NCBI GenBank assembly: GCA_951812955.1
Contig: OX638340.1
Coordinates: 3,008,001-3,072,000 of the forward strand
DNA: 64,000 bases
Direction: 5' to 3'
Source of the DNA: an uncultured Gemmatimonadota bacterium
GTDB lineage: Bacteria > JAAXHH01
The notes beneath the pieces are model-generated. The model searched no databases, had not been told where the DNA came from, and worked only from the letters and a program-made list of their open reading frames with translations. The position numbers were made by a program, and so were the translations under genes. Shown here piece by piece: positions 9,273 to 63,624 of this stretch. Position 1 is the first letter of the stretch, and every line of letters begins with the position of its first letter.

Positions 9273-9554
9273 CGGACGGAAATCCCTCCTGTCTTAGCTG
9301 AGATAACAAGGGCTCCCGGTTTGTCGGACGTGGGCAGGGCTCGATTTACGGGTTTTCCACCTGGTCGATGCAACTCTTTATGCCTTTATCCACGACAAGC
9401 TGGTGGCAACGCAATGGCGCCGTCTTTACCGCGCCAATAGCCCTCTTCGCACTAATGACTTATTTGCATGTTTCCATGATTTAACACTGCCAGCCCGTTC
9501 CGGAAACTGCCTCCGGCAGATCAGACGAAGTAAGGAAACAGCAGGAATAGTATA

Positions 9555-9642
9555 GTGTTCTCCGTTTATGGGCACTAACGCTTTCCTGACCAACTGATTA
9601 ATCCTTGAATACAGAATAGCCCCGTGGTCACCACGGGGCTAT
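9555..9642. repeat. Composite repeat: second copy of the collagen-gene leader motif (X2) followed 26 bp later by a second copy of the terminator-like palindrome motif (Y2)
   Basis: X2 gtgttctccgtttatgg (9555-9571) matches 7190-7207 in 17 of 18 positions. Y2 ttaatccttgaatacagaatagccccg...cggggctat (9598-9642) matches taatcgttgaatacagaaaagccccg...cggggctttt at 5380-5425. X2 is followed by no start codon or ORF. Confidence 0.75.
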
Positions 9643-10232
9643 TCACTTTCAATATGATTATGCTGAGCATCAGGTATGAGAAAGTTTGAAAATTGAACCA
9701 ATTACCAGACAGTTTGTGATTTGATGTTGACGTTGGATCAATTACTAAATAACATGGATGTGTATTTTACGTGATCGTACTTTTGTAAGAGAATTAAAAT
9801 AAAGTATAATACGAATAATGATGAAAAAATATAAGTTTTTTCTTGACTTATTACTCAACGTAACCATATATATACGGATAAATATCACAAAAAAATCATT
9901 TTTTGTCACGATATGGTTGACTTGGCCCTGCAACCAAGCGTACCTTACAATCTAAAGATTCAACAGAAGATAATAAGGAAGCCGTCATGACGGGTTAACA
10001 TGCCCTAAATTCAACCGCGAGCACACAGTCGATCCCGTTGTAGGGGACGCAGCCCAAACCCCCGGGCAACGGTATTCGATCCTGCAGACTACGCCGTCCG
10101 AAATGCGTTAAACCGTCTCATTCATCACACAGGAACATCGAGGCAGGAGTTAGCGGCTTAATTTTCTGCCTATCTCACCCTGAAGAACACGATATATCGA
10201 TCTCGCCCATGAGAGCGTGATGAGCCTCTTGC

Positions 10233-11192
10233 GTGGAGATAGTACCGGGTACCATGCAGCTACGCATTTCCTTACAGTCTCCCCTCGACAGCAAGGCCGA
10301 TCCGTTGTCCATTGATGTCGCGCGCTTGCTGCATGCCAGCATTGCGCCGAACACGGCGAAGGCGTACGGCGATGCATTGCGCAAGTTGTTCGAGCATCTG
10401 GATGGGCAGACACTGACCGACGCTGCGCTGGCCGGTTACCTGGCGCACTTGTATGCCAAAGGACTGGCGCCGGCTTCGGTCACGGTAGTGGTACAGGCCG
10501 TCCGTTTCTGGGAAAAGCTGGAAAACCGCCCGTCCAGTGTCGAGTCGTTGACGAGTCGAACACTGGCCGGAATCCGACGCGAAGGTCGAAACCGGGGCCG
10601 CGGCCAGGTAACCGGGCTGACCCGAGAAACGGTCAATCTCATGGTTCAGAACGCCATCAATACCGACACACTGGCCGGACTGAGAGACGCCGCTCTGTTT
10701 CGTGTAATGAGCGATGCCCTGTTGCGGATTGGGGAAGCCGTCGCCATCGACTGTGAGCACATCACCACCGAGTTCGACGGGAGCGGGCGGCTGATGTTGC
10801 TTCGAAGCAAGACCGACCAGGAGGGAAAGGGTACCAGTCTCTTCCTGACCAACCGTACCGTCGACGCGATCCGGCAATTGCAGCATGGAGCGGGGTTCAC
10901 CACCGGCCCCCTCTTCCGCCGGATGGTGAAGGGCGACCGAATGTGCGACGGCCGTCTGACGGTGGACGGCGCCCGGCTGACTATCAAAGCGTCTGCGGAG
11001 CGGGTCGGTATCAAGGGCGTGAGCGGCCACAGTCTTCGCATCGGAACCGCCCAGGAACTCGCGCAGCGCGGCGCATCCCTGGTGGAATTGCAGAACGCCG
11101 GCCGATGGACCGACAGCCAGATGCCCGCGCACTACACCCGTGAGCAGGCCGCGGGCAAGGGTGCCGTCGCCCGCTTGCTGGGGATTGACTGA
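10233..11192 (+). CDS. Cre-like tyrosine site-specific recombinase (phage-integrase family)
   Basis: 319 aa. The C-terminus aligns well with P1 Cre (GHSLRIGTAQELAQRGASLVELQNAGRWTDSQMPAHYTRE...ARLLGID versus Cre GHSARVGAARDMARAGVSIPEIMQAGGWTNVNIVMNYIRN...VRLLEDGD). This includes the catalytic H-x-x-R, W and Y. The N-terminal SAM-like domain is also Cre-like (YLAHLYAKGLAPASV). GTG (10233) or ATG (10254) start. A 550-bp AT-rich tract lies upstream. Confidence 0.8.
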   Translation: MEIVPGTMQLRISLQSPLDSKADPLSIDVARLLHASIAPNTAKAYGDALRKLFEHLDGQTLTDAALAGYLAHLYAKGLAPASVTVVVQAVRFWEKLENRPSSVESLTSRTLAGIRREGRNRGRGQVTGLTRETVNLMVQNAINTDTLAGLRDAALFRVMSDALLRIGEAVAIDCEHITTEFDGSGRLMLLRSKTDQEGKGTSLFLTNRTVDAIRQLQHGAGFTTGPLFRRMVKGDRMCDGRLTVDGARLTIKASAERVGIKGVSGHSLRIGTAQELAQRGASLVELQNAGRWTDSQMPAHYTREQAAGKGAVARLLGID

Positions 11193-22428: not shown

Positions 22429-24582
22429 ATGCCGGCGTTGCCGATAGCGGATATCCCGTACATGTCTCAAATCACCTCGCACCAGGATGCAGAACGACAA
22501 ACGAGTGAAGCGGTGCCGAACATTTCGTCCAGGCCGCCTGCCGATGCCCCGGTCGAAACCCGACCCGTGACCTACGTGTTCACCGGAGGCGGGACGGGCG
22601 GCCACGTCTATCCGGGTCTGGCCATCGCCGACGAGGTCCGGTCCCGGAACCCCGGGGTCCGGATCGTGTACATCGGCGCACGGGGCAGGATGGAAGCCTC
22701 CCTCGTGCCGAAGCGAGGCTATCCGATACACCTGGTCCATGCACGTGGACTGCCGTCGGGCAGGCGGGTTCTTGCGCTCCTGGGATTCGCGGCCTACACC
22801 GGATTCGGCGTTTTTCAAAGCCTGTTCCACCTGGTGCGGCATCGACCCCGCATGATTGTCGCCACGGGCGGCTATGCCAGCAGTCCCGTTCTCCTGGCCT
22901 ACTGGATGCTCAGAACACTCCGTCTCGCGGGGGCCTGTCGGTGTTTCGTCCACGAACAAAACGTCGTGCCCGGGAAGGTCAACCGTCTGGCCGGACGAAT
23001 CGCGGACCGTATCGGCGTATCTTTCGAAGCGTCGTTGCGACATTTTCCTGCGGGGAAGGCGACGTGGACGGGCTATCCAGTCAGGACGGAGATCGGCGCC
23101 GTGTCGGGCGCCGAAGCGCGTAGTTCACTGGGGCTTCCGTCCGAAGCGAAGGTCATTTTCGCCTTCGGCGCTTCGTCGGGCGCCCGTTCCATCAACCGGG
23201 CCGTGGTCGACGCGCTGCCCCGCCTGCTGTCCAGGCAGGATATCCACGTCATCCACGTTATCGGACAGACCCGAAGTCCGGATTACCACGCCGAAGCCGA
23301 CACCCTGGACCGCCTTGAGAGACTCGACCTCACCGATGAACAGCGGTCGAGATACCTCCAATCAGAGTACTCCCACGAAATCGAAACGCTCTACGCCGCC
23401 AGCGACCTGGTTATCACCCGTTCCAGTGCAGGGGTCATCACGGAGATCGGCATTTGCGGTATACCGTCCGTACTCGTACCGCTGCCCTACGCGCCCGGCG
23501 ACCATCAGGCCGTGAACGCCAGGACGCTCGAATCGAGCGGCGCGGCCAGCGTGGTGTACGAATCGATTTCCATGGAGAACGGCCAGACCATTGGCGAGGT
23601 CAACGGAGTGCGCCTGGCCCGTCTGGCCCTCGAGATCCTGGACGATCCGGCCCGACGCGACGCCATGATCCGGCGTGCGCGGGAGACCTTCGATCGCGGC
23701 GGGCTGGACCGGATCGCCGACCAGTTGGATCAGATATCGACAGACCGGCCGTCGGACCGGGTTCTCTCCAATGGCAGGCCCGATGAACCCGATGTTGCCG
23801 GGTCCGTTTTTCCCCCCGAACACGTGTTTTCCGCGTTTTCCCTGGTCCGCCGGTTCACGACGGACCGCGATCAGACATTCATCGACTCCGTGGGAGAAGA
23901 CTACCTCAAGTACCGTGTCGACGGATACCTCAAGAGCGCGCGCTGGCAGATCCGGAACGAAGGCGTCAAACTCGTCGGACTGCTCGGCTACCGGGATCGC
24001 CTGCCCTTCATCCTTGCGCTGCTGCGCGACAAGACACCGGCGCCCAGGTTGCAGCGGTTGTTTGGGGGAGATTACAGGCAGGTCGGCTTCATTCGCAGGA
24101 ACGCCGTGACGACGATCAGCCAGCTCGGTGTCTACGATACGCCGGTGCGCGCCACGCTGCTGGACCTGTTGTCGGATCCCTATTACGAAGTCCGGTCGGC
24201 CGCCGCCAGGGGTTTCGCCGCCCTCGCTCCGGAAACCGGGGATAGGGACGACGAGGTCCTGGGCGGACTGCGCGGCCTGTTGCGGGAATCCTCCTTCGAA
24301 GTCCGGTCTGCCGCCATACTCGCCATGGGCAAAACGGGCGACGGCGCCGTCGCGGAATGGCTCAGGCCCTTTTACCAGGACCCGAACGGGAAGGTCCGCC
24401 AGGCCGTCATCGACGCCCTGAACGACCTGGTCAGGAGGAAGATGATCGACGACCTGGATGGACTGCGCGAAGAACTCGACGGGATTCTGATCACCAGCAA
24501 TCACTTCGACCCGGACTTCCCGATTAAACGTACGCTGAACCGGCTGATCGACATGATCCGCCGTCAGCAGGAATCCCCATGA
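22429..24582 (+). CDS. murG: MurG-type GT28 glycosyltransferase (UDP-GlcNAc:undecaprenyl-PP-MurNAc-pentapeptide GlcNAc transferase-like) fused to a C-terminal HEAT/PBS-lyase-like repeat domain
   Basis: 717 aa. The MurG N-terminal G-loop TGGGTGGHVYPGLAIADE is present. The donor-binding half runs ~22550-23700, and an ~300-aa C-terminal extension carries repeated SDPYYEVRSAAARGFAAL / SSFEVRSAAILAMGKTGD / NGKVRQAVIDALNDL HEAT-like units. The start may be the internal Met at 22462. It sits directly upstream of mraY. Confidence 0.7.
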   Translation: MPALPIADIPYMSQITSHQDAERQTSEAVPNISSRPPADAPVETRPVTYVFTGGGTGGHVYPGLAIADEVRSRNPGVRIVYIGARGRMEASLVPKRGYPIHLVHARGLPSGRRVLALLGFAAYTGFGVFQSLFHLVRHRPRMIVATGGYASSPVLLAYWMLRTLRLAGACRCFVHEQNVVPGKVNRLAGRIADRIGVSFEASLRHFPAGKATWTGYPVRTEIGAVSGAEARSSLGLPSEAKVIFAFGASSGARSINRAVVDALPRLLSRQDIHVIHVIGQTRSPDYHAEADTLDRLERLDLTDEQRSRYLQSEYSHEIETLYAASDLVITRSSAGVITEIGICGIPSVLVPLPYAPGDHQAVNARTLESSGAASVVYESISMENGQTIGEVNGVRLARLALEILDDPARRDAMIRRARETFDRGGLDRIADQLDQISTDRPSDRVLSNGRPDEPDVAGSVFPPEHVFSAFSLVRRFTTDRDQTFIDSVGEDYLKYRVDGYLKSARWQIRNEGVKLVGLLGYRDRLPFILALLRDKTPAPRLQRLFGGDYRQVGFIRRNAVTTISQLGVYDTPVRATLLDLLSDPYYEVRSAAARGFAALAPETGDRDDEVLGGLRGLLRESSFEVRSAAILAMGKTGDGAVAEWLRPFYQDPNGKVRQAVIDALNDLVRRKMIDDLDGLREELDGILITSNHFDPDFPIKRTLNRLIDMIRRQQESP

Positions 24583-25725: not shown

Positions 25726-26820
25726 GTGATCGAGATACAGTATACGAAGTGGATTCCCCGCGTCGACGATGTCGAAGACCGACTCGAACAACTGTTCGGC
25801 CTGTTGAGCCAGATTCTCATCCATACCAGCGGCGACGTGGAGGAAGCCCTGAAATGGATGCGCTACATCGACCAGCGCCAGGGCATCTTCGACGACAACA
25901 TCAGCTATGAATCCTTCGTCAAGGAACTCGAAAAGCGGGGTTACGTAAAGCAGGACGAAAACGAGTTCACCCTCACTGAAAAGGGCGGGCGGCGTATCCG
26001 CGAGGATTCGCTCCGCTTTGTCTACGGCAGTCTCAAGAAGGGATTGAGCGGGGGGCACGAGACGCCCTTCGAGGGGGAAGGCGTGGAAAGACTGAGCGAG
26101 ACCCGTCCCTACCGCTACGGCGACCAGGCGTCGAACGTCGATTTTACCTCTACCCTCGGCAATGCGATCCGCCGGTCCGGATTCAATCTGGACCTGCACG
26201 AGGACGACTTCGAGGTCTACGAGGTCGAACACACCACGTCATGCGCTACCGTCATGCTCCTAGACGTCAGCCACAGCATGATCCTCTACGGCGAGGACCG
26301 CATTTCCCCGGCCAAGCGAGTGGCCATGGCCCTGGCGGAGCTCATTCTCCGCAAGTACCCGAAGGACGAACTGCATCTCGTCCTCTTTGGCGACGACGCG
26401 AAGCAGGTGAAGATCGAAGACCTGCCCTACGTCTCGGTCGGCCCTTACCACACGAACACCAAGGCCGGCCTCCTCATGGCCCGGAACATCCTGCGCCGGA
26501 CCCGGAACGTCAACAAGCAGGTCTTCATGATTACCGACGGCAAGCCTTCGGCCATCTACGACCGGAACGGCCGCCTGTACCTGAATTCATTCGGTCTTGA
26601 CCCCCGGATCGTGAACCGGACCCTCGACGAGGCCATAACCTGCCGCCGGGAGAAGATCACCATCAGCACCTTCATGGTCACCCAGGATCCCTACCTTGTC
26701 GGCTTCGTGGAGAAACTCACGGAGATGAACCACGGCCGCGCCTATTACTCCTCGCTCGACAGCCTGGGTGAGTACATTCTCGTGGACTATGTCAAGAACC
26801 GCCGCCGCCGGGTGAATTGA
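25726..26820 (+). CDS. von Willebrand factor type A (VWA) domain protein, CoxE-like
   Basis: Proposed GTG start at 25726 with a GAAGGG SD, 365 aa. The track ORF 25360.. overlaps mraY in another frame. The C-terminal VWA has a MIDAS DxSxS (LLDVSHSM) and a TDG motif (MITDGKPSA). The ~190-aa N-terminal domain is of unknown function. Confidence 0.65.
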   Translation: MIEIQYTKWIPRVDDVEDRLEQLFGLLSQILIHTSGDVEEALKWMRYIDQRQGIFDDNISYESFVKELEKRGYVKQDENEFTLTEKGGRRIREDSLRFVYGSLKKGLSGGHETPFEGEGVERLSETRPYRYGDQASNVDFTSTLGNAIRRSGFNLDLHEDDFEVYEVEHTTSCATVMLLDVSHSMILYGEDRISPAKRVAMALAELILRKYPKDELHLVLFGDDAKQVKIEDLPYVSVGPYHTNTKAGLLMARNILRRTRNVNKQVFMITDGKPSAIYDRNGRLYLNSFGLDPRIVNRTLDEAITCRREKITISTFMVTQDPYLVGFVEKLTEMNHGRAYYSSLDSLGEYILVDYVKNRRRRVN

Positions 26821-27121
26821 GGACGGGCATTTTCCCGGGTATTCCGGTCGGGCGATTGGTTGCGGACTACCGTGGCCTGCGTCATGCGTTCCGGTGCAGC
26901 GCAGTCATGGTTATTTCGTTTTAGTCAATAAAATAGAATAGTATTAAATCTTATTCCATTAATCCTAATAACATGTGTATCAGGTATCTCCTTCGGAAAT
27001 AGAACGAATCTTGACTGTAGTATCGCCTTGTGCGTAAAAGGACGCTGTTGTAAATTAAGTCTTAAAATGGAATAGCAAACTATGTAATTCCACCAAATGA
27101 AATAAAGAAAGGGCGGCAGTA

Positions 27122-28285
27122 GTGGAACGGGGACTGAGTGGCACCTATGACCGAATGACCATAGGTGGAGAAACGGTACAGGCCTTTGTACCGCTGCCAT
27201 TGCCTCCCAATCCACGACTGGATCTGGACGGACCGCTACAACAGTTATTCGAATCTGCGGTACTCGCCCTGGGACGGCTCGACAGCATTACGACGCTCCT
27301 CCCCGATGAGGAGCTTTTCCTTTATGCCTACGTGCGTAAGGAAGCGGTACTTTCTTCCCAGATCGAAGGCACTCAGTCTTCATTATCAGACCTTTTGCTC
27401 TTCGAACTAGAAGATGTCCCAGGCACACCAAACATCGATGTACATGAAGTCTCAAATTATGTAGCGGCGATGGAACATGGATTAAATCGTCTGAAGAATA
27501 ACTTCCCGTTATCGAATCGACTGATCCGCGAAGCACATAAAATACTATTGTCTCACGGTCGAGGCAGTTCCAAGTCTCCGGGTGAATTCAGACGGTCGCA
27601 GAACTGGATTGGAGGCACTCGCCCGGGCAACGCCATCTATGTGCCTCCACCACAAACGGTCTTACCGGACTGCATGGCCGAGTTCGAGCGTTTTCTGCAC
27701 ACGGAGGACGACGGGTTGCCCGTGTTGCTACGTGCGGGACTGGCCCATGTTCAGTTTGAGACCATCCACCCGTTTCTCGATGGGAACGGTCGAGTTGGTC
27801 GGTTGCTTATCACGTTGCTGTTATGCCAAGCAGGGATACTGCACCAACCCATGCTGTACTTGAGCTTGTACTTCAAGCAACATCGCAGCGAATACTACGA
27901 GTTGCTTAACAACGTACGCCTCACCGGCAACTGGGAAGAATGGCTTTCCTTTTTCCTTGAAGGAGTTAAAATCACAGCCGACGGCGCGGTCGGTACGGTT
28001 CAGCGACTCAACACAATGTTCAGACTGGATCGAGACAGGATCGAGGAGGTCGCAGGTAGAAAAGCCGGATCAGCGCTACGTGTACACGAAGCACTTAAAT
28101 CTCAAATGCTTCTGTCTCTTCCTGCTACCCGTCTCAAAACCGGTCTGTCTTATCAGGCAACAGCCACTGCCATGGATCTACTGGTTTCACTGGGTATCGC
28201 ACAGGAAATCACGGGGAAGCGCCGCAACCGGCTCTACGTTTATAAAAAGTATTTGTCTATTCTCAACGAAGGGACCGAAGTTTAG
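27122..28285 (+). CDS. Fic-family protein (class II, canonical AMPylation motif) with C-terminal winged-helix domain
   Basis: 387 aa. Core motif HPFLDGNGRVGR matches HPFx[DE]GNGRxxR. The N-terminal inhibitory motif SSQIEG matches [ST]xxxE[GN] upstream of the core. GC is ~50%, and a 250-bp AT-rich tract lies upstream. Confidence 0.85.
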   Translation: MERGLSGTYDRMTIGGETVQAFVPLPLPPNPRLDLDGPLQQLFESAVLALGRLDSITTLLPDEELFLYAYVRKEAVLSSQIEGTQSSLSDLLLFELEDVPGTPNIDVHEVSNYVAAMEHGLNRLKNNFPLSNRLIREAHKILLSHGRGSSKSPGEFRRSQNWIGGTRPGNAIYVPPPQTVLPDCMAEFERFLHTEDDGLPVLLRAGLAHVQFETIHPFLDGNGRVGRLLITLLLCQAGILHQPMLYLSLYFKQHRSEYYELLNNVRLTGNWEEWLSFFLEGVKITADGAVGTVQRLNTMFRLDRDRIEEVAGRKAGSALRVHEALKSQMLLSLPATRLKTGLSYQATATAMDLLVSLGIAQEITGKRRNRLYVYKKYLSILNEGTEV

Positions 28286-28412
28286 CTACCAGGTTTACTC
28301 GGTCTGGAATAATGAGAACGGTCGGCCATTGGCGTTCGTTTCGAATTGTAAAGGACGGACTATGTTCAATGAACAAGCGCACTCCCTGCGGTCTCCTTGA
28401 CTATCGGCCACC

Positions 28413-29048
28413 ATGACCCCTGCCTCGTTTGTGCATTCCCTTCAGCAACTCGAGTTCGATCAGGTATTCAACCCGTACACGGATCGATGTTCCGTATACG
28501 ACCGGGAAGACGCCCCGCTCTTGCGATCGCGGCTTCTGCGAGACATGGTCGAATCGGCAACTGAATCAAGACTCGATGCACTTTGGGTCGGCCGCGACTA
28601 CAGCTACCGCGGTGGGCGCCGTACAGGCCTGGCTTTCACCGACGACGTACACCTCGGCGAACACGCGCTCAGGTGGGGGCTGACGATGCAACGGCCGGTC
28701 CGTGGCGATCCGGTCAAGGAACGCTCCGCCAGCATAGTCTGGAGCGTACTGTCTCGCATCGAGGCGACCGTATTCCTCTGGAACGTCTTTCCTCTACACC
28801 CCCACGAGCCGGGCAATCCCTTCAGCAACAGGTCCCACAATGCGCAGGAGCGCCGGGCAGGACAGTCCCTCCTCGATCAGCTGGTCCGGCTTCTGCAACC
28901 GTCCGCCATTATCGCCATTGGAAACGACGCGGAAAAGGCGGCCCTAAGGCTCGAGAGACCCGCGGAGGTCACAAAGGTACGCCATCCCAGCTATGGGGGC
29001 CGGACCGAGTTCCTGGAAGGCATGAAAACGTACTACGGTTTCCGCTGA
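28413..29048 (+). CDS. Uracil-DNA glycosylase-superfamily protein (SMUG/family-3-like motifs)
   Basis: 211 aa. GRDYSYRGGRRTGLAF resembles the SMUG GMNPGPxGMxQTGVPF motif. VFLWNVFPLHP resembles the F-x-x-N-x-x-P-L segment. The C-terminal HPSYGG resembles the HPSPRN motif. The assignment is by motif only. Confidence 0.45.
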   Translation: MTPASFVHSLQQLEFDQVFNPYTDRCSVYDREDAPLLRSRLLRDMVESATESRLDALWVGRDYSYRGGRRTGLAFTDDVHLGEHALRWGLTMQRPVRGDPVKERSASIVWSVLSRIEATVFLWNVFPLHPHEPGNPFSNRSHNAQERRAGQSLLDQLVRLLQPSAIIAIGNDAEKAALRLERPAEVTKVRHPSYGGRTEFLEGMKTYYGFR

Positions 29049-29160
29049 ATCGATTCGGCGCGGAACGTCGGTGTCCCGGCCGGACGACCCGCTCCGCACG
29101 GTCCTGCAAACCGCCGTACTTTCATCCACGGGTTGATACACGGAACCCGTTTGATCTGGC

Positions 29161-29189
29161 TTGACGAGCCGGAATCGGCCGTGTAGTAT
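29161..29189 (+). promoter_or_regulatory. Sigma70-like promoter candidate upstream of amt (TTGACG-17 bp-TAGTAT)
   Basis: ttgacgagccggaatcggccgtgtagtat. It lies 90-140 nt upstream of the amt start codons. Confidence 0.35.
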
Positions 29190-29276
29190 ATCTCGACACA
29201 CTCAACACGATCAAACCACATTTATTTTCATCATCCCATCACCCACTATCATCGGTGTCAGCCGGGAGATCACACC

Positions 29277-30683
29277 ATGAGTGCATTGCTCAGTCACGTA
29301 TTGTCTTACAGGCCGCGCGGCATTTCGTCGATGAAACTGCTGGCCGTGCTGGCAGCGGCGGTCTGCGGCGCAGGGACCGCCTTTGCCATGGCGGAGCACG
29401 AAGGCGTCCTCGTCTCATCGCCGGACCAGTTCGTGTTCAACACCATTTCCTTCATGCTCTGGGGCGCACTGGTGATGTGGATGTGTGCTGGTTTTACCAT
29501 GCTTGAATCCGGGTCGGTGCGGACCAAGAACGCCTCCATGATCTGCCTGAAGAACATCGGCCTCTATTCCATCGCCGGGATCGCCTACTATTTCCTGGGT
29601 TACAATCTCATGTACGTCGACGTGGGTAGTTTCGTGGGATCATTCTCGCTTTCGTACGGACCGACGGCCGACGAGATCGCCCTGGTGAACGGTACGGAGT
29701 CGGCCGCAGCCGAGGTGATCGCACTGGGATACTCCACCATGTCGGACTGGTTCTTCCAGATGGTTTTCGTGGCCACGGCCGCATCCATCGTTTCGGGCGC
29801 GCTGGCGGAAAGAGTCAAGCTCTGGTCTTTCTTTATCTTCGTCCTGTTCCTCACCGGGGTCATCTATCCCGTCGTCGGTGCGTGGACCTGGGGCGAGGGT
29901 TGGCTCAGCCAGTTGGGGTTCAAGGATTTCGCGGGATCCACGATCGTCCACAGCACGGGCGGATGGGCGGCCCTGGCCGGCCTGATCGTCGTCGGCCCCA
30001 GACTCGGCAAGTACCGCAAGGACGGTTCGGTAAAAAACACCCCGCCTTCCAACGTGCTGGTGGTGACCCTGGGCGTCTTCATCCTGTGGCTCGGATGGTT
30101 CGGATTCAACGGCGGTTCGCAGCTGGCGCTGGGTAGTCCACTGGACGCCGTGGCGATGAGTCACGTCCTCGTGAATACCAACCTGGCGGCCGCGGCGGGC
30201 GCGCTCATGGCGCTGTTCTGCACGCGGCCCGTCTTCGGCCGTATCGATCTATTCGCCTGCCTGAACGGCGCCATTGCGGGCCTGGTCTCGATCACTGCGG
30301 GACCGGACATGGTGCAGCACTACTGGGCCCTCATCATCGGGGCCATCGGCGGCGTCATCTGCACGGTTGGGATGAAACTGTTGGAATCGGTTAGAATCGA
30401 CGACGTGGTCGGCGCCGTGCCCGCCCATCTCTTCGCGGGCATCTGGGGTACGGTGGCCGTGTGTATCGTGAGTGGAGGCAACCTGGGCGTGCAGTTGATC
30501 GGCATTCTCTCGATCGGCGCTTTCGTCTTCGCAGCGTCCTGGGTGATCTGGAAGCTGATCGACCTGGTCCTTTCCGTCCGGGTGACTGCCCAGGTCGAAC
30601 GGCTGGGACAGGACGTCGGGGAACTCGGCATCGAGGCGTATCCCGAATTCGTGCTTACGCCCGAAGAACTGGATGAAGACTGA
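29277..30683 (+). CDS. amt: Ammonium transporter (Amt/MEP/Rh family)
   Basis: 468 aa (the start may be the Met at 29331, which begins a signal-peptide-like MKLLAVLAAAVCGAGTAFA). Twin-His and Amt signature regions are present (..GGWAALAGLIVVGPRLGKY.., ..LGVFILWLGWFGFNGGS..). No glnK/PII gene follows. Confidence 0.9.
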   Translation: MSALLSHVLSYRPRGISSMKLLAVLAAAVCGAGTAFAMAEHEGVLVSSPDQFVFNTISFMLWGALVMWMCAGFTMLESGSVRTKNASMICLKNIGLYSIAGIAYYFLGYNLMYVDVGSFVGSFSLSYGPTADEIALVNGTESAAAEVIALGYSTMSDWFFQMVFVATAASIVSGALAERVKLWSFFIFVLFLTGVIYPVVGAWTWGEGWLSQLGFKDFAGSTIVHSTGGWAALAGLIVVGPRLGKYRKDGSVKNTPPSNVLVVTLGVFILWLGWFGFNGGSQLALGSPLDAVAMSHVLVNTNLAAAAGALMALFCTRPVFGRIDLFACLNGAIAGLVSITAGPDMVQHYWALIIGAIGGVICTVGMKLLESVRIDDVVGAVPAHLFAGIWGTVAVCIVSGGNLGVQLIGILSIGAFVFAASWVIWKLIDLVLSVRVTAQVERLGQDVGELGIEAYPEFVLTPEELDED

Positions 30684-63108: not shown

Positions 63109-63181
63109 AGCCCTCGGCCGGACTTGAACCGGCGACCTACACCTTACCATGGTGTTGCTCTACCAACTGAGCTACAAGGGC
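63109..63181 (-). tRNA. tRNA-Thr (anticodon GGT)
   Basis: Hand-folded from GCCCTTGTAGCTCAGTTGGTAGAGCAACACCATGGTAAGGTGTAGGTCGCCGGTTCAAGTCCGGCCGAGGGCT. 7-bp acceptor stem, anticodon loop aTGGTaa, T-loop GGTTCAAGTCC. Confidence 0.8.
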
Positions 63182-63266
63182 GCTTTCGTTCAAGGTTCAG
63201 ATTAATGCTTACATTATAGCTGGCCGAAACCTTCAGTTTTCCGAACCCGGTCACAGCACTTTATAG

Positions 63267-63340
63267 AGCGGGAAACGGGACTCGAACCCGCGACCCTCAG
63301 CTTGGAAGGCTGATGCTCTAGCCAACTGAGCTATTCCCGC
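63267..63340 (-). tRNA. tRNA-Gly (anticodon TCC)
   Basis: GCGGGAATAGCTCAGTTGGCTAGAGCATCAGCCTTCCAAGCTGAGGGTCGCGGGTTCGAGTCCCGTTTCCCGCT. Anticodon loop cTTCCaa. Confidence 0.8.
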
Positions 63341-63403
63341 CGGTTGTCATTCTGAAGCTGCCTGTTGGCCTGATCTACCCGCCGGCCCTCTTTCAGATAC
63401 GCA

Positions 63404-63485
63404 TGGGGAGGGCAGGATTCGAACCTGCGAAGGCTGAGCCAACGGATTTACAGTCCGTCCCATTTGACCGCTCTGGAACCTCCCC
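63404..63485 (-). tRNA. tRNA-Tyr (anticodon GTA, long variable arm)
   Basis: GGGGAGGTTCCAGAGCGGTCAAATGGGACGGACTGTAAATCCGTTGGCTCAGCCTTCGCAGGTTCGAATCCTGCCCTCCCCA. Anticodon loop cTGTAaa and a class II variable arm. Confidence 0.8.
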
Positions 63486-63497
63486 TGGCTACCTGAA

Positions 63498-63570
63498 AGC
63501 CACCACTCGGATTCGAACCGAGAACCTACTGATTACAAATCAGCCGCTCTGCCATTGGAGCTATGGTGGC
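63498..63570 (-). tRNA. tRNA-Thr (anticodon TGT)
   Basis: GCCACCATAGCTCCAATGGCAGAGCGGCTGATTTGTAATCAGTAGGTTCTCGGTTCGAATCCGAGTGGTGGCT. Anticodon loop tTTGTaa. Confidence 0.8.
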
Positions 63571-63624
63571 CAATATAATCAGTACGAATCCGCATCTTGA
63601 GCAGCTCAAGAACACAGACAGGGA

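Follow-up and report, generated by a model that had tools for sequence, protein, structure and literature searches.

A Fic gene and a uracil-DNA glycosylase (UDG)-like gene stand side by side in the 64-kb stretch of Gemmatimonadota DNA analyzed here, hereafter the window. From a comparison with related loci, we consider it rather probable that the two constitute a co-transcribed block of defense-type cargo whose products act independently of each other, and that this block sits in a variable chromosomal slot. This slot (26821–30683, holding the Fic, UDG-like and Amt genes in the window lineage) is bounded by the MurG-MraY-VWA genes on the left and by the convergent ribosomal operon rplQ-rpoA on the right. 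The pairing is not due to chance, as four lineages show it with the two genes closely spaced or overlapping, and it is not obligate either, as each gene has been lost independently at the same site. Both open reading frames (ORFs) were found where the first-pass annotation of the window had placed them, and the block and its flanks, with guanine-plus-cytosine (GC) content given as a fraction, read as follows:

25726..26820, plus strand: VWA-domain gene, left flank and outside the unit, last gene of the conserved MurG-MraY-VWA block
26881..27121, plus strand: AT-rich Fic leader, presumed promoter/operator region, GC 0.365
26936..26956, plus strand: distal palindrome copy, GAATAGT-N7-CTTATTC, repeat family D1
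27070..27090, plus strand: proximal palindrome, GAATAGC-N7-GTAATTC, candidate operator for the winged helix-turn-helix (wHTH) of Fic
27122..28285, plus strand: class II Fic adenylyltransferase of SoFic type, 387 aa, GTG start, assigned by Pfam, PADLOC, PDB and motifs
28286..28412, plus strand: spacer between the Fic and UDG-like genes, 127 bp, no conserved element
28413..29048, plus strand: glycosylase with predicted SMUG1-like fold, of a distinct family in the UDG superfamily, 211 aa
29277..30683, plus strand: ammonium transporter (Amt) gene, right flank and outside the unit, followed by the minus-strand rplQ-rpoA block

The comparison drew on genome loci chosen via the glycosylase and on metagenome loci chosen via the Fic. 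Among 185,579 species, each represented by one genome, 516 stretches encoding the glycosylase came up, and the 86 genome loci analyzed comprise 80 of these stretches, five loci fetched earlier and the window itself. Relatives that carry conflicting phylum labels and share core proteins of ~94% identity were counted as one lineage. Searching all loci with the window Fic by tblastn recovered a full-length Fic, 70–88% identical, directly upstream of the glycosylase gene and on the same strand in five loci of the window lineage (L009, L011, L013, L018 and L166), in one gammaproteobacterial locus (L022) and in three loci of Acidobacteriota (L029, L048 and L059); L001, from the same species as the window, likewise carries a full-length Fic directly upstream. 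In an Aminicenantes locus (L023) the contig ends within the upstream Fic. The gap between the two genes ranges from −4 bp, an overlap, to 132 bp; the stop codon of Fic and the start codon of the glycosylase share bases (GTGA) in the loci of Acidobacteriota and Aminicenantes. Further loci contain only C-terminal Fic remnants upstream of the glycosylase gene (L026, L032 and L058) or about the C-terminal half of Fic (residues 222–387, L071), and in L021 and L025 the Fic lies 4–5 kb upstream with a TIR/MazG_C cassette between Fic and glycosylase. Co-occurrence beyond the window, a point raised by the first-pass annotation, thus holds in four lineages with a close Fic directly upstream of the glycosylase gene.

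Several relatives lack the Fic at this site. The syntenic loci L002–L005 show the order VWA-UDG-Amt with an intact glycosylase gene, and in L006, whose core proteins are 98–99% identical to those of the window, exactly the equivalent of positions 26881–28412 is cleanly missing and the glycosylase gene is intact. More distant relatives (VWA protein 72–76% identical) lack Fic, glycosylase and Amt between VWA and rplQ and carry unrelated genes there; in L257–L259 these are an aminotransferase gene and small ORFs, accompanied in L259 by a chlorite-dismutase-like gene. Since the operator palindrome or Fic remnants persist, the Fic-less relatives have lost the Fic rather than never having possessed it. 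The remnants, the palindromes and the slot comparison together argue that the pair came into a variable slot as accessory DNA and that the Fic was later deleted repeatedly. One model considered from the Fic-less relatives, in which the Fic was a 1.4-kb insertion beside a native core glycosylase gene, is ruled out by the Fic genes and remnants upstream of the glycosylase gene in other lineages, by the operator that persists in Fic-less loci and by the distant relatives that lack both genes.

The composition of the locus is in line with part of what the first-pass annotation had read from it. It had described an AT-rich tract at 26880–27120 ahead of a low-GC Fic gene in surroundings of ~62% GC and had taken this as a sign of horizontal acquisition. 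The tract (GC 0.365) and the low GC of the Fic gene (0.517; GC at third codon positions, GC3, 0.544) were confirmed, whereas the surroundings of the pair vary between 59 and 64% GC (window mean 0.593) rather than lying flat at 62%. GC3 amounts to 0.77–0.83 in the neighboring MurG, MraY, VWA, Amt, L17 and RpoA genes, and a GC as low as that of the Fic gene occurs in only 4% of the 1164-bp segments across the 64 kb. Compared with the window genes in GC and GC3, the Fic gene is hence atypical, whereas the UDG-like gene matches the host (GC 0.608, GC3 0.708). Because of this host-level GC the low-GC part stops at ~28412, and the anomaly comprises leader, Fic gene and 127-bp spacer, with the second gene outside it. 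As to hallmarks of integration, there is no tRNA gene close by (the nearest is at 63109), and the search for flanking direct repeats gave none that was convincing, only short two-copy matches. Of the proposed horizontal acquisition it stands that the pair is accessory DNA in a variable slot. The acquisition is not recent, because the arrangement or its deletion scars are shared by many relatives with core proteins 89–99% identical, and the AT-richness is presumably in part that of functional promoter/operator DNA.

The host-like GC of the glycosylase gene next to a Fic gene of deviating GC, together with the syntenic loci L002–L005 that carry the glycosylase alone, would also be expected if a SoFic gene had inserted by pure coincidence beside a housekeeping glycosylase of base excision repair, the two being linked by position only. 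We regard this as very unlikely, and it is already largely refuted: Fic-less relatives keep the operator palindrome or C-terminal Fic remnants, the adjacency recurs in unrelated flanking contexts, and more distant relatives possess the slot without either gene. Moreover, unlike a housekeeping gene, the glycosylase family is patchy and hypervariable, often of foreign GC, and found in TIR/MazG_C and type I restriction-modification loci.

If the pairing is real, is it also necessary? Around 70 of the 86 glycosylase loci lack a Fic. On the other side, 80 metagenomic loci with a 57–71% identical Fic were collected, 70 of which extend at least 300 bp downstream, and the glycosylase was found in none of these 70 and in none of 79 Fic loci on viral contigs. 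Four close Fic homologues (74–76% identity) reside without a glycosylase in other defense or mobile contexts, namely an hsdM-PIN-Fic-hsdS-DarT-DarG array, an AAA ATPase locus, a Fic-helicase-DprA arrangement and a prophage-like region; for one of them, P0385, the glycosylase may lie beyond the 3-kb flank, as in L021. In our trees, which are neighbor-joining only, close unpaired Fic homologues nest inside the clade of paired Fics. A single clade of paired Fics had been considered, and it dissolved once these close unpaired homologues were added. Finally, the VWA/Amt slot of L171, the counterpart of that in the window, is occupied by an intact Fic of 387 aa and, next to it, a glycosylase pseudogene from which ~110 internal codons have been lost. 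Since all three other states occur at one site, dependence in either direction is argued against. The first-pass annotation had left the choice between a coincidental pair and a stress or defense pair, and the outcome lies in between: tight pairing recurs, but each gene mostly occurs without the other and each decays independently.

Beyond its position, the window Fic can be classified in some detail. Pfam identifies Fic_N (2e-25, 89 bits) and Fic (1e-17, 65 bits) in the protein, and the PADLOC model for SoFic matches residues 18–382 to profile positions 5–359 of 361 (E=1.4e-117). The best solved relatives are the structures of SoFic from S. oneidensis, in which SoFic residues 16–364 align with residues 24–383 of the window Fic (phmmer E=1.9e-37, 132 bits), so that the alignment spans the full length including the C-terminal wHTH-type domain. 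The catalytic motif HPFLDGNGRVGR at residues 216–227 fits HxFx(D/E)GNGRxxR, and the inhibitory SSQIEG at residues 78–83, N-terminal to the core, fits (S/T)xxxE(G/N) and aligns with SSEIEN of SoFic. Both motifs had been picked out by the first-pass annotation, and its assignment to self-inhibited class II Fic proteins with a C-terminal wHTH agrees with Pfam, PADLOC and the full-length SoFic alignment. Hence, judged by homology, the window Fic is a self-inhibited class II enzyme of SoFic type. With 162 bits it stays far below the cut-off of 550 of the NCBIfam equivalog model NF046030 (protein adenylyltransferase SoFic) and is therefore a homologue rather than an equivalog.

In the literature (PMC12249575), SoFic is described as a single-gene abortive-infection system that protects on its own in published screens. 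EF-Tu has been reported as its AMPylation target, and the protein is reported to bind, in the promoter of its own gene, the first 100 bp, which are AT-rich (bioRxiv 10.64898/2026.07.09.737422). The window Fic shares with SoFic the Fic_N region with the inhibitory helix, the Fic core, the C-terminal wHTH-type domain, and the catalytic and inhibitory motifs. The upstream DNA is AT-rich in both cases, and the palindromic candidate operator in the window is consistent with the reported promoter binding. The two differ in that the window Fic matches the S. oneidensis protein only distantly (E=1.9e-37) and in that a UDG-fold gene follows the Fic in one clade, at times with overlapping codons, which has not been reported for SoFic.

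For the Sofic of E. coli, a downstream antitoxin of 47 aa, AS1, has been reported (PMC12249575), in contrast to the window, where no conserved AS1-like small ORF lies downstream of the Fic. The sole candidate in the spacer (28312–28416, 34 aa) was rejected; its ATG start is AAG in L001. The view of the first-pass annotation that the Fic has no separate antitoxin is, given the AS1 precedent, to be taken with caution. One may ask whether the glycosylase-fold protein itself neutralizes the Fic, either as an AS1-like antitoxin or by excising a nucleobase adduct made by the Fic in a manner comparable to DarG and DarT. Apart from the AS1 precedent, the stop/start overlap would suit such a toxin-antidote pair, as would the more frequent loss of the Fic than of the glycosylase in our sample, which is the usual order of toxin-antitoxin decay. 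We nonetheless consider it the least probable of all readings. The intact Fic beside the pseudogene in L171 argues against the glycosylase as an essential antitoxin, a role that we rejected for this reason, most relatives of the window Fic have no glycosylase, and class II Fic proteins bear their own inhibitory helix, which is present in the window protein. Furthermore, the invariant residues of the glycosylase family look like those of an enzyme, its usual partner is MazG_C rather than Fic, and the reported target of SoFic, EF-Tu, is a protein.

The leader of the Fic gene was aligned over 300 bp in 11 loci from several lineages. The aligned leaders contain a conserved block that ends in the palindrome GAATAAC-N7-GTTATTC and is seen across lineages, and the 150 bp upstream of the Fic are AT-rich in all related loci (GC 0.29–0.51). 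In the window, the proximal palindrome has its core GGAAT-N13-ATTCC at 27069–27091, with the center ~42 bp before the Fic start, and deviates from GAATARY-N7-RYTATTC by one mismatch; the distal copy is located 134 bp further upstream. Matches of this type number three in the 64 kb versus 0.9 expected, and two of them are the leader copies. A relaxed pattern (AATARY-N6-9-RYTATT) occurs 31 times in the 1.79 Mb of fetched loci versus 5.2 expected, and ~20 of the 31 matches lie 36–53 bp upstream of a Fic start, both in paired loci and at solo metagenomic Fic genes. L013 likewise carries two palindromes (at −182 and −52), the Fic-less loci L005, L010, L026 and L027 retain the palindrome upstream of the UDG-like gene, and more distant Fic genes on viral contigs lack it. 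Because the palindrome is conserved, and given the SoFic literature, the leader is best understood as the promoter/operator of an autoregulated Fic, with the palindrome as its probable operator. The spacer behind the Fic has no conserved element: its sequence is unrelated in L013, it is absent in L029, L048 and L059, and the distance is −4 to 54 bp in other lineages. No terminator-like or promoter-like site was found in the spacer, and Rfam gave no match at E≤1 for either leader or spacer.

The second protein was described in the first-pass annotation as SMUG/UDG-family-3-like on account of its motifs, GRDYSYRGGRRTGLAF and HPSYGG, which are indeed present at residues 60–75 and 191–196, respectively. 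Pfam UDG (PF03167) recognizes the 211-aa protein with 35.6 bits against a cut-off of 24.3. At the level of sequence, neither the glycosylase itself nor a profile of 42 family sequences retrieved anything below E=1 from the PDB, and no SMUG chain appeared at E≤10 when all PDB sequences were searched by phmmer or with the family profile; PADLOC also returned no match. Weak hidden Markov model (HMM) matches point to family 4. The score for TIGR00758 (family 4 UDGa) is 19.3 bits versus a cut-off of 125.3, and the window protein has a single cysteine, C26, which is the only one conserved in the family, whereas family 4 requires four ligands for its 4Fe-4S cluster. An AlphaFold2 model built on the 42-sequence family alignment is confident (predicted local distance difference test score, pLDDT, 91). 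Foldseek places SMUG1 of G. metallireducens, human and Xenopus at the top (E=5e-10, template modeling score 0.62–0.67), followed by SMUG2, UdgX and family 4. Among UDG families, the predicted fold is hence closest to SMUG1.

In the model, N124 ends the strand 120–124 and H191 follows the last strand (185–189), and the HMM alignment with family-4 UDGs sets N124 on their asparagine. Across 73 representative family sequences of 27–55% identity, N124 is conserved in 70, H191 in 71 and P192 in all 73. Motif 1 reads G-(R/E)-(D/A)-(L/P)-G-(Y/H)-R-G-G-R-R-T-G family-wide, about a third of the members carrying a GEAPG like that of family 4; in the window protein it is GRDYSY, and the GMNPG(P) of SMUG1 with its catalytic asparagine is not found. 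A further, nearly invariant signature specific to the family, FNPY-x-D-x-C-x3-D, is located in the N-terminal part. A profile search of 1.84 billion representatives yielded just 1527 clusters; the family is small and distinct. DR0022-like acid UDGs were considered as the family and rejected, as their motif 1 is LEAP. With SMUG1 and SMUG2, the family shares the HPS-type motif 2 after the last strand and the asparagine that ends strand 2. It differs from them in overall identity, which is 13–23% (21–23% to G. metallireducens SMUG1 and 12–13% to SMUG2), in motif 1, where GRD(Y/L)(S/G)(Y/H)RGGRRTG or, in a third, GEAPG replaces the GMNPG of SMUG1, in the FNPY signature, and in its setting, which is that of conflict systems and not of repair. 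By sequence, the glycosylase thus represents a separate family within the UDG superfamily. The earlier description stands as to superfamily and SMUG1-like fold, so that the second protein does not resolve to an unrelated fold, but fails as to family membership, given the missing GMNPG and the missing sequence-level match in the PDB.

The evolution of the glycosylase gene also departs from that of its neighbors. Within the window lineage, MraY, VWA, Amt, L17 and RpoA are 83–99% identical to the window proteins (mostly 89–99%) and the Fic is 82–88% identical, whereas the glycosylase reaches only 60–75% and is about as divergent as copies from other phyla. Compared with L001 of the same species, it shows 21 amino-acid changes, 17 of which fall into residues 17–54 (window positions 28461–28575). 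Its synonymous divergence (dS) is 0.19 with a nonsynonymous-to-synonymous ratio (dN/dS) of 0.31, versus a dS of ~0.05 and a dN/dS of 0.02–0.04 for Fic, MraY and VWA. The clustering of the changes and the elevated dS suggest that a divergent allele segment was imported into the glycosylase gene. Behavior of this kind, with 60–75% identity against mostly 89–95% in core proteins, is more in keeping with a conflict gene than with one for repair. In L166 (4215–4919) the glycosylase measures 235 aa, because a heptad-like unit (DKAARGL / EKAARRL) has been tandemly expanded in frame just ahead of the last strand.

Brig1 and Brig2, which act in defense against phages whose cytosines or thymidines are modified, are glycosylases that share the UDG-superfamily fold with the window family, a likeness drawn from fold and setting. 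Both groups are patchy, move horizontally, lie near restriction-modification or defense genes, often with atypical GC, and consist of one small enzyme for which an action on invading DNA is plausible. In contrast, Brig1 is structurally nearest to family 4 (the S. tokodaii UDG), whereas the window family is nearest to SMUG1, and Brig1 and Brig2 stand alone, whereas the window family usually forms the last gene of a multi-gene operon.

This operon is conserved and forms the main context of the family. In ~30 of the 86 loci, a MazG+MazG_C gene lies directly upstream on the same strand, with gaps of −11 to +25 bp that are mostly between −4 and +3, and is usually preceded by genes for Nmad2 and a ThsB-like TIR protein (PADLOC ThsB, E=7e-64). 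The order in L021, L038, L060, L056, L081 and others is ThsB-like TIR, Nmad2, sometimes a 670-aa TIR-containing protein, MazG+MazG_C and the UDG-like gene. All five glycosylase loci on viral contigs contain the TIR/Nmad2/MazG_C operon. These cassettes, and Fic genes too, are often inserted between hsdM and hsdS of type I restriction systems, and the GC of the glycosylase gene is often far below that of the host, e.g. 0.40 versus 0.59 in L083. PADLOC has no match for MazG_C or Nmad2, a literature search for 'Nmad2' returned only unrelated papers, and tblastn with MazG_C, Nmad2 and TIR representatives detected none of them in the 64-kb window. MazG, MazG-C, NMAD and UDG domains are listed among predicted, unvalidated defense systems of DefensePredictor (PMC13092281, Fig. 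6F text). The window family agrees with this prediction in ending TIR-Nmad2-MazG+MazG_C operons in the ~30 genome loci and all five viral loci; it differs in that the upstream partner in the window is a Fic, and the UDG drawn in PMC13092281 may belong to the same family or to another. In loci of Nitrospira and Gammaproteobacteria, the region downstream of the Fic or the UDG-like gene repeatedly contains a RecQ/DEAD-type helicase gene (~690 aa) and, after it, a DprA/SLOG-like gene (L169:3001–7164; L022, L025 and L032), with the UDG-like gene present or absent between Fic and helicase.

Since the family is translationally coupled to MazG_C elsewhere, this context hints at a shared module rather than a free-standing enzyme and weighs against our interpretation of the pair as independently acting cargo. 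An unlikely option is that the glycosylase family serves a modular anti-phage system as its shared part for sensing or processing DNA, the upstream effector being interchangeable: an AMPylase of SoFic type in the clade of the window, and a TIR/Nmad2/MazG_C cassette for nucleotide chemistry in most other cases. Were this so, the removal of bases from modified phage DNA would be linked to an arrest of translation or a depletion of nucleotides. Somewhat less doubtful, though still unlikely, is a true two-component system of Fic and glycosylase with a swappable partner, in which the glycosylase recognizes or processes modified phage DNA and the abasic site or the released base licenses the upstream effector, this being AMPylation of SoFic type in the window and MazG_C/TIR nucleotide chemistry in the commoner operon. 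The stop/start overlap (4 bp in two lineages), the conserved order and strand in all four lineages and the roughly parallel Fic and glycosylase trees are expected of such a system as well. It would also account for the 3′-terminal position that the glycosylase always takes, coupled to an NTP-using enzyme (MazG_C in ~30 loci, Fic in 11), for the entry of the pair into the VWA/rplQ slot as a unit, and for L021 and L025, which hold Fic, TIR/MazG_C cassette and glycosylase in one array. What speaks against it is the absence of the glycosylase from the 70 metagenomic and 79 viral Fic loci, the close unpaired Fics within the paired clade, the intact Fic next to a glycosylase pseudogene in L171, the many loci with an intact and conserved glycosylase after Fic deletion, and the protection conferred by SoFic as a single gene in the screens mentioned above.

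Four further points count against our interpretation of independent, co-transcribed cargo or limit how its evidence is to be read. D62 in motif 1 is not conserved family-wide, roughly half of the members showing R-D and roughly a third E-A. A simple scan for sigma-70 promoters came up empty in the AT-rich leader, such a scan being uninformative for the host phylum. Because every locus was sampled via either the Fic or the glycosylase, the frequencies given are conditional and are not population estimates. Most comparison genomes are metagenome-assembled, so that calls of pseudogenes and deletions could include assembly errors.

Under the interpretation as independently acting cargo, the Fic would by homology be a dimeric AMP-transferase that is restrained by its own N-terminal inhibitory helix with SSQIEG, and published work on SoFic suggests that it may AMPylate EF-Tu and thereby halt translation during phage infection. 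Its C-terminal wHTH would probably repress its own promoter at the two leader palindromes, and the glycosylase gene would be read through from the same promoter. The glycosylase, in which N124 of motif 3 and H191 of motif 2 are kept, is probably monofunctional and would most likely excise uracil-derived or otherwise modified bases from invading DNA, by analogy with Brig1 and Brig2. Both genes would thus travel and be expressed together in one clade, and neither would require the other.

The locus bears on the trigger and the regulation of SoFic, which is counted as a single-gene defense system; if the two genes are independent, they represent ordinary cargo of a defense island. Genomes with both genes, with the Fic alone or with the glycosylase alone at one site offer a natural set in which to ask about cooperation, and the palindrome provides a conserved operator candidate for a widespread SoFic subfamily. 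The glycosylase family is distinct, hypervariable and tied to TIR/Nmad2/MazG_C operons and type I restriction loci, and our search found no biochemical description of it. Defense glycosylases form a small group (Brig1, Brig2 and the Dag enzymes), to whose range this family could add a new fold subfamily and new base modifications.

Some features of the window lie apart from the pair. MurG (22429–24582), with N- and C-terminal Glyco_transf_28 domains, is fused to a C-terminal HEAT-repeat region of ~250 aa, a fusion kept in all relatives examined. Four tRNA genes on the minus strand at 63109–63571 (Thr-GGT, Gly-TCC, Tyr-GTA and Thr-TGT) are far off and unrelated to the pair. The most AT-rich stretch of the window is at 9273–10232 (~960 bp, with 240-bp GC minima of 0.26–0.32 and no ORF of at least 90 aa). 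It is preceded by a ketoacyl-synthase-like gene and directly followed by a tyrosine recombinase gene (10233–11192; Pfam Phage_integrase, 4e-12), and stretch and recombinase may mark another mobile element or integration site.

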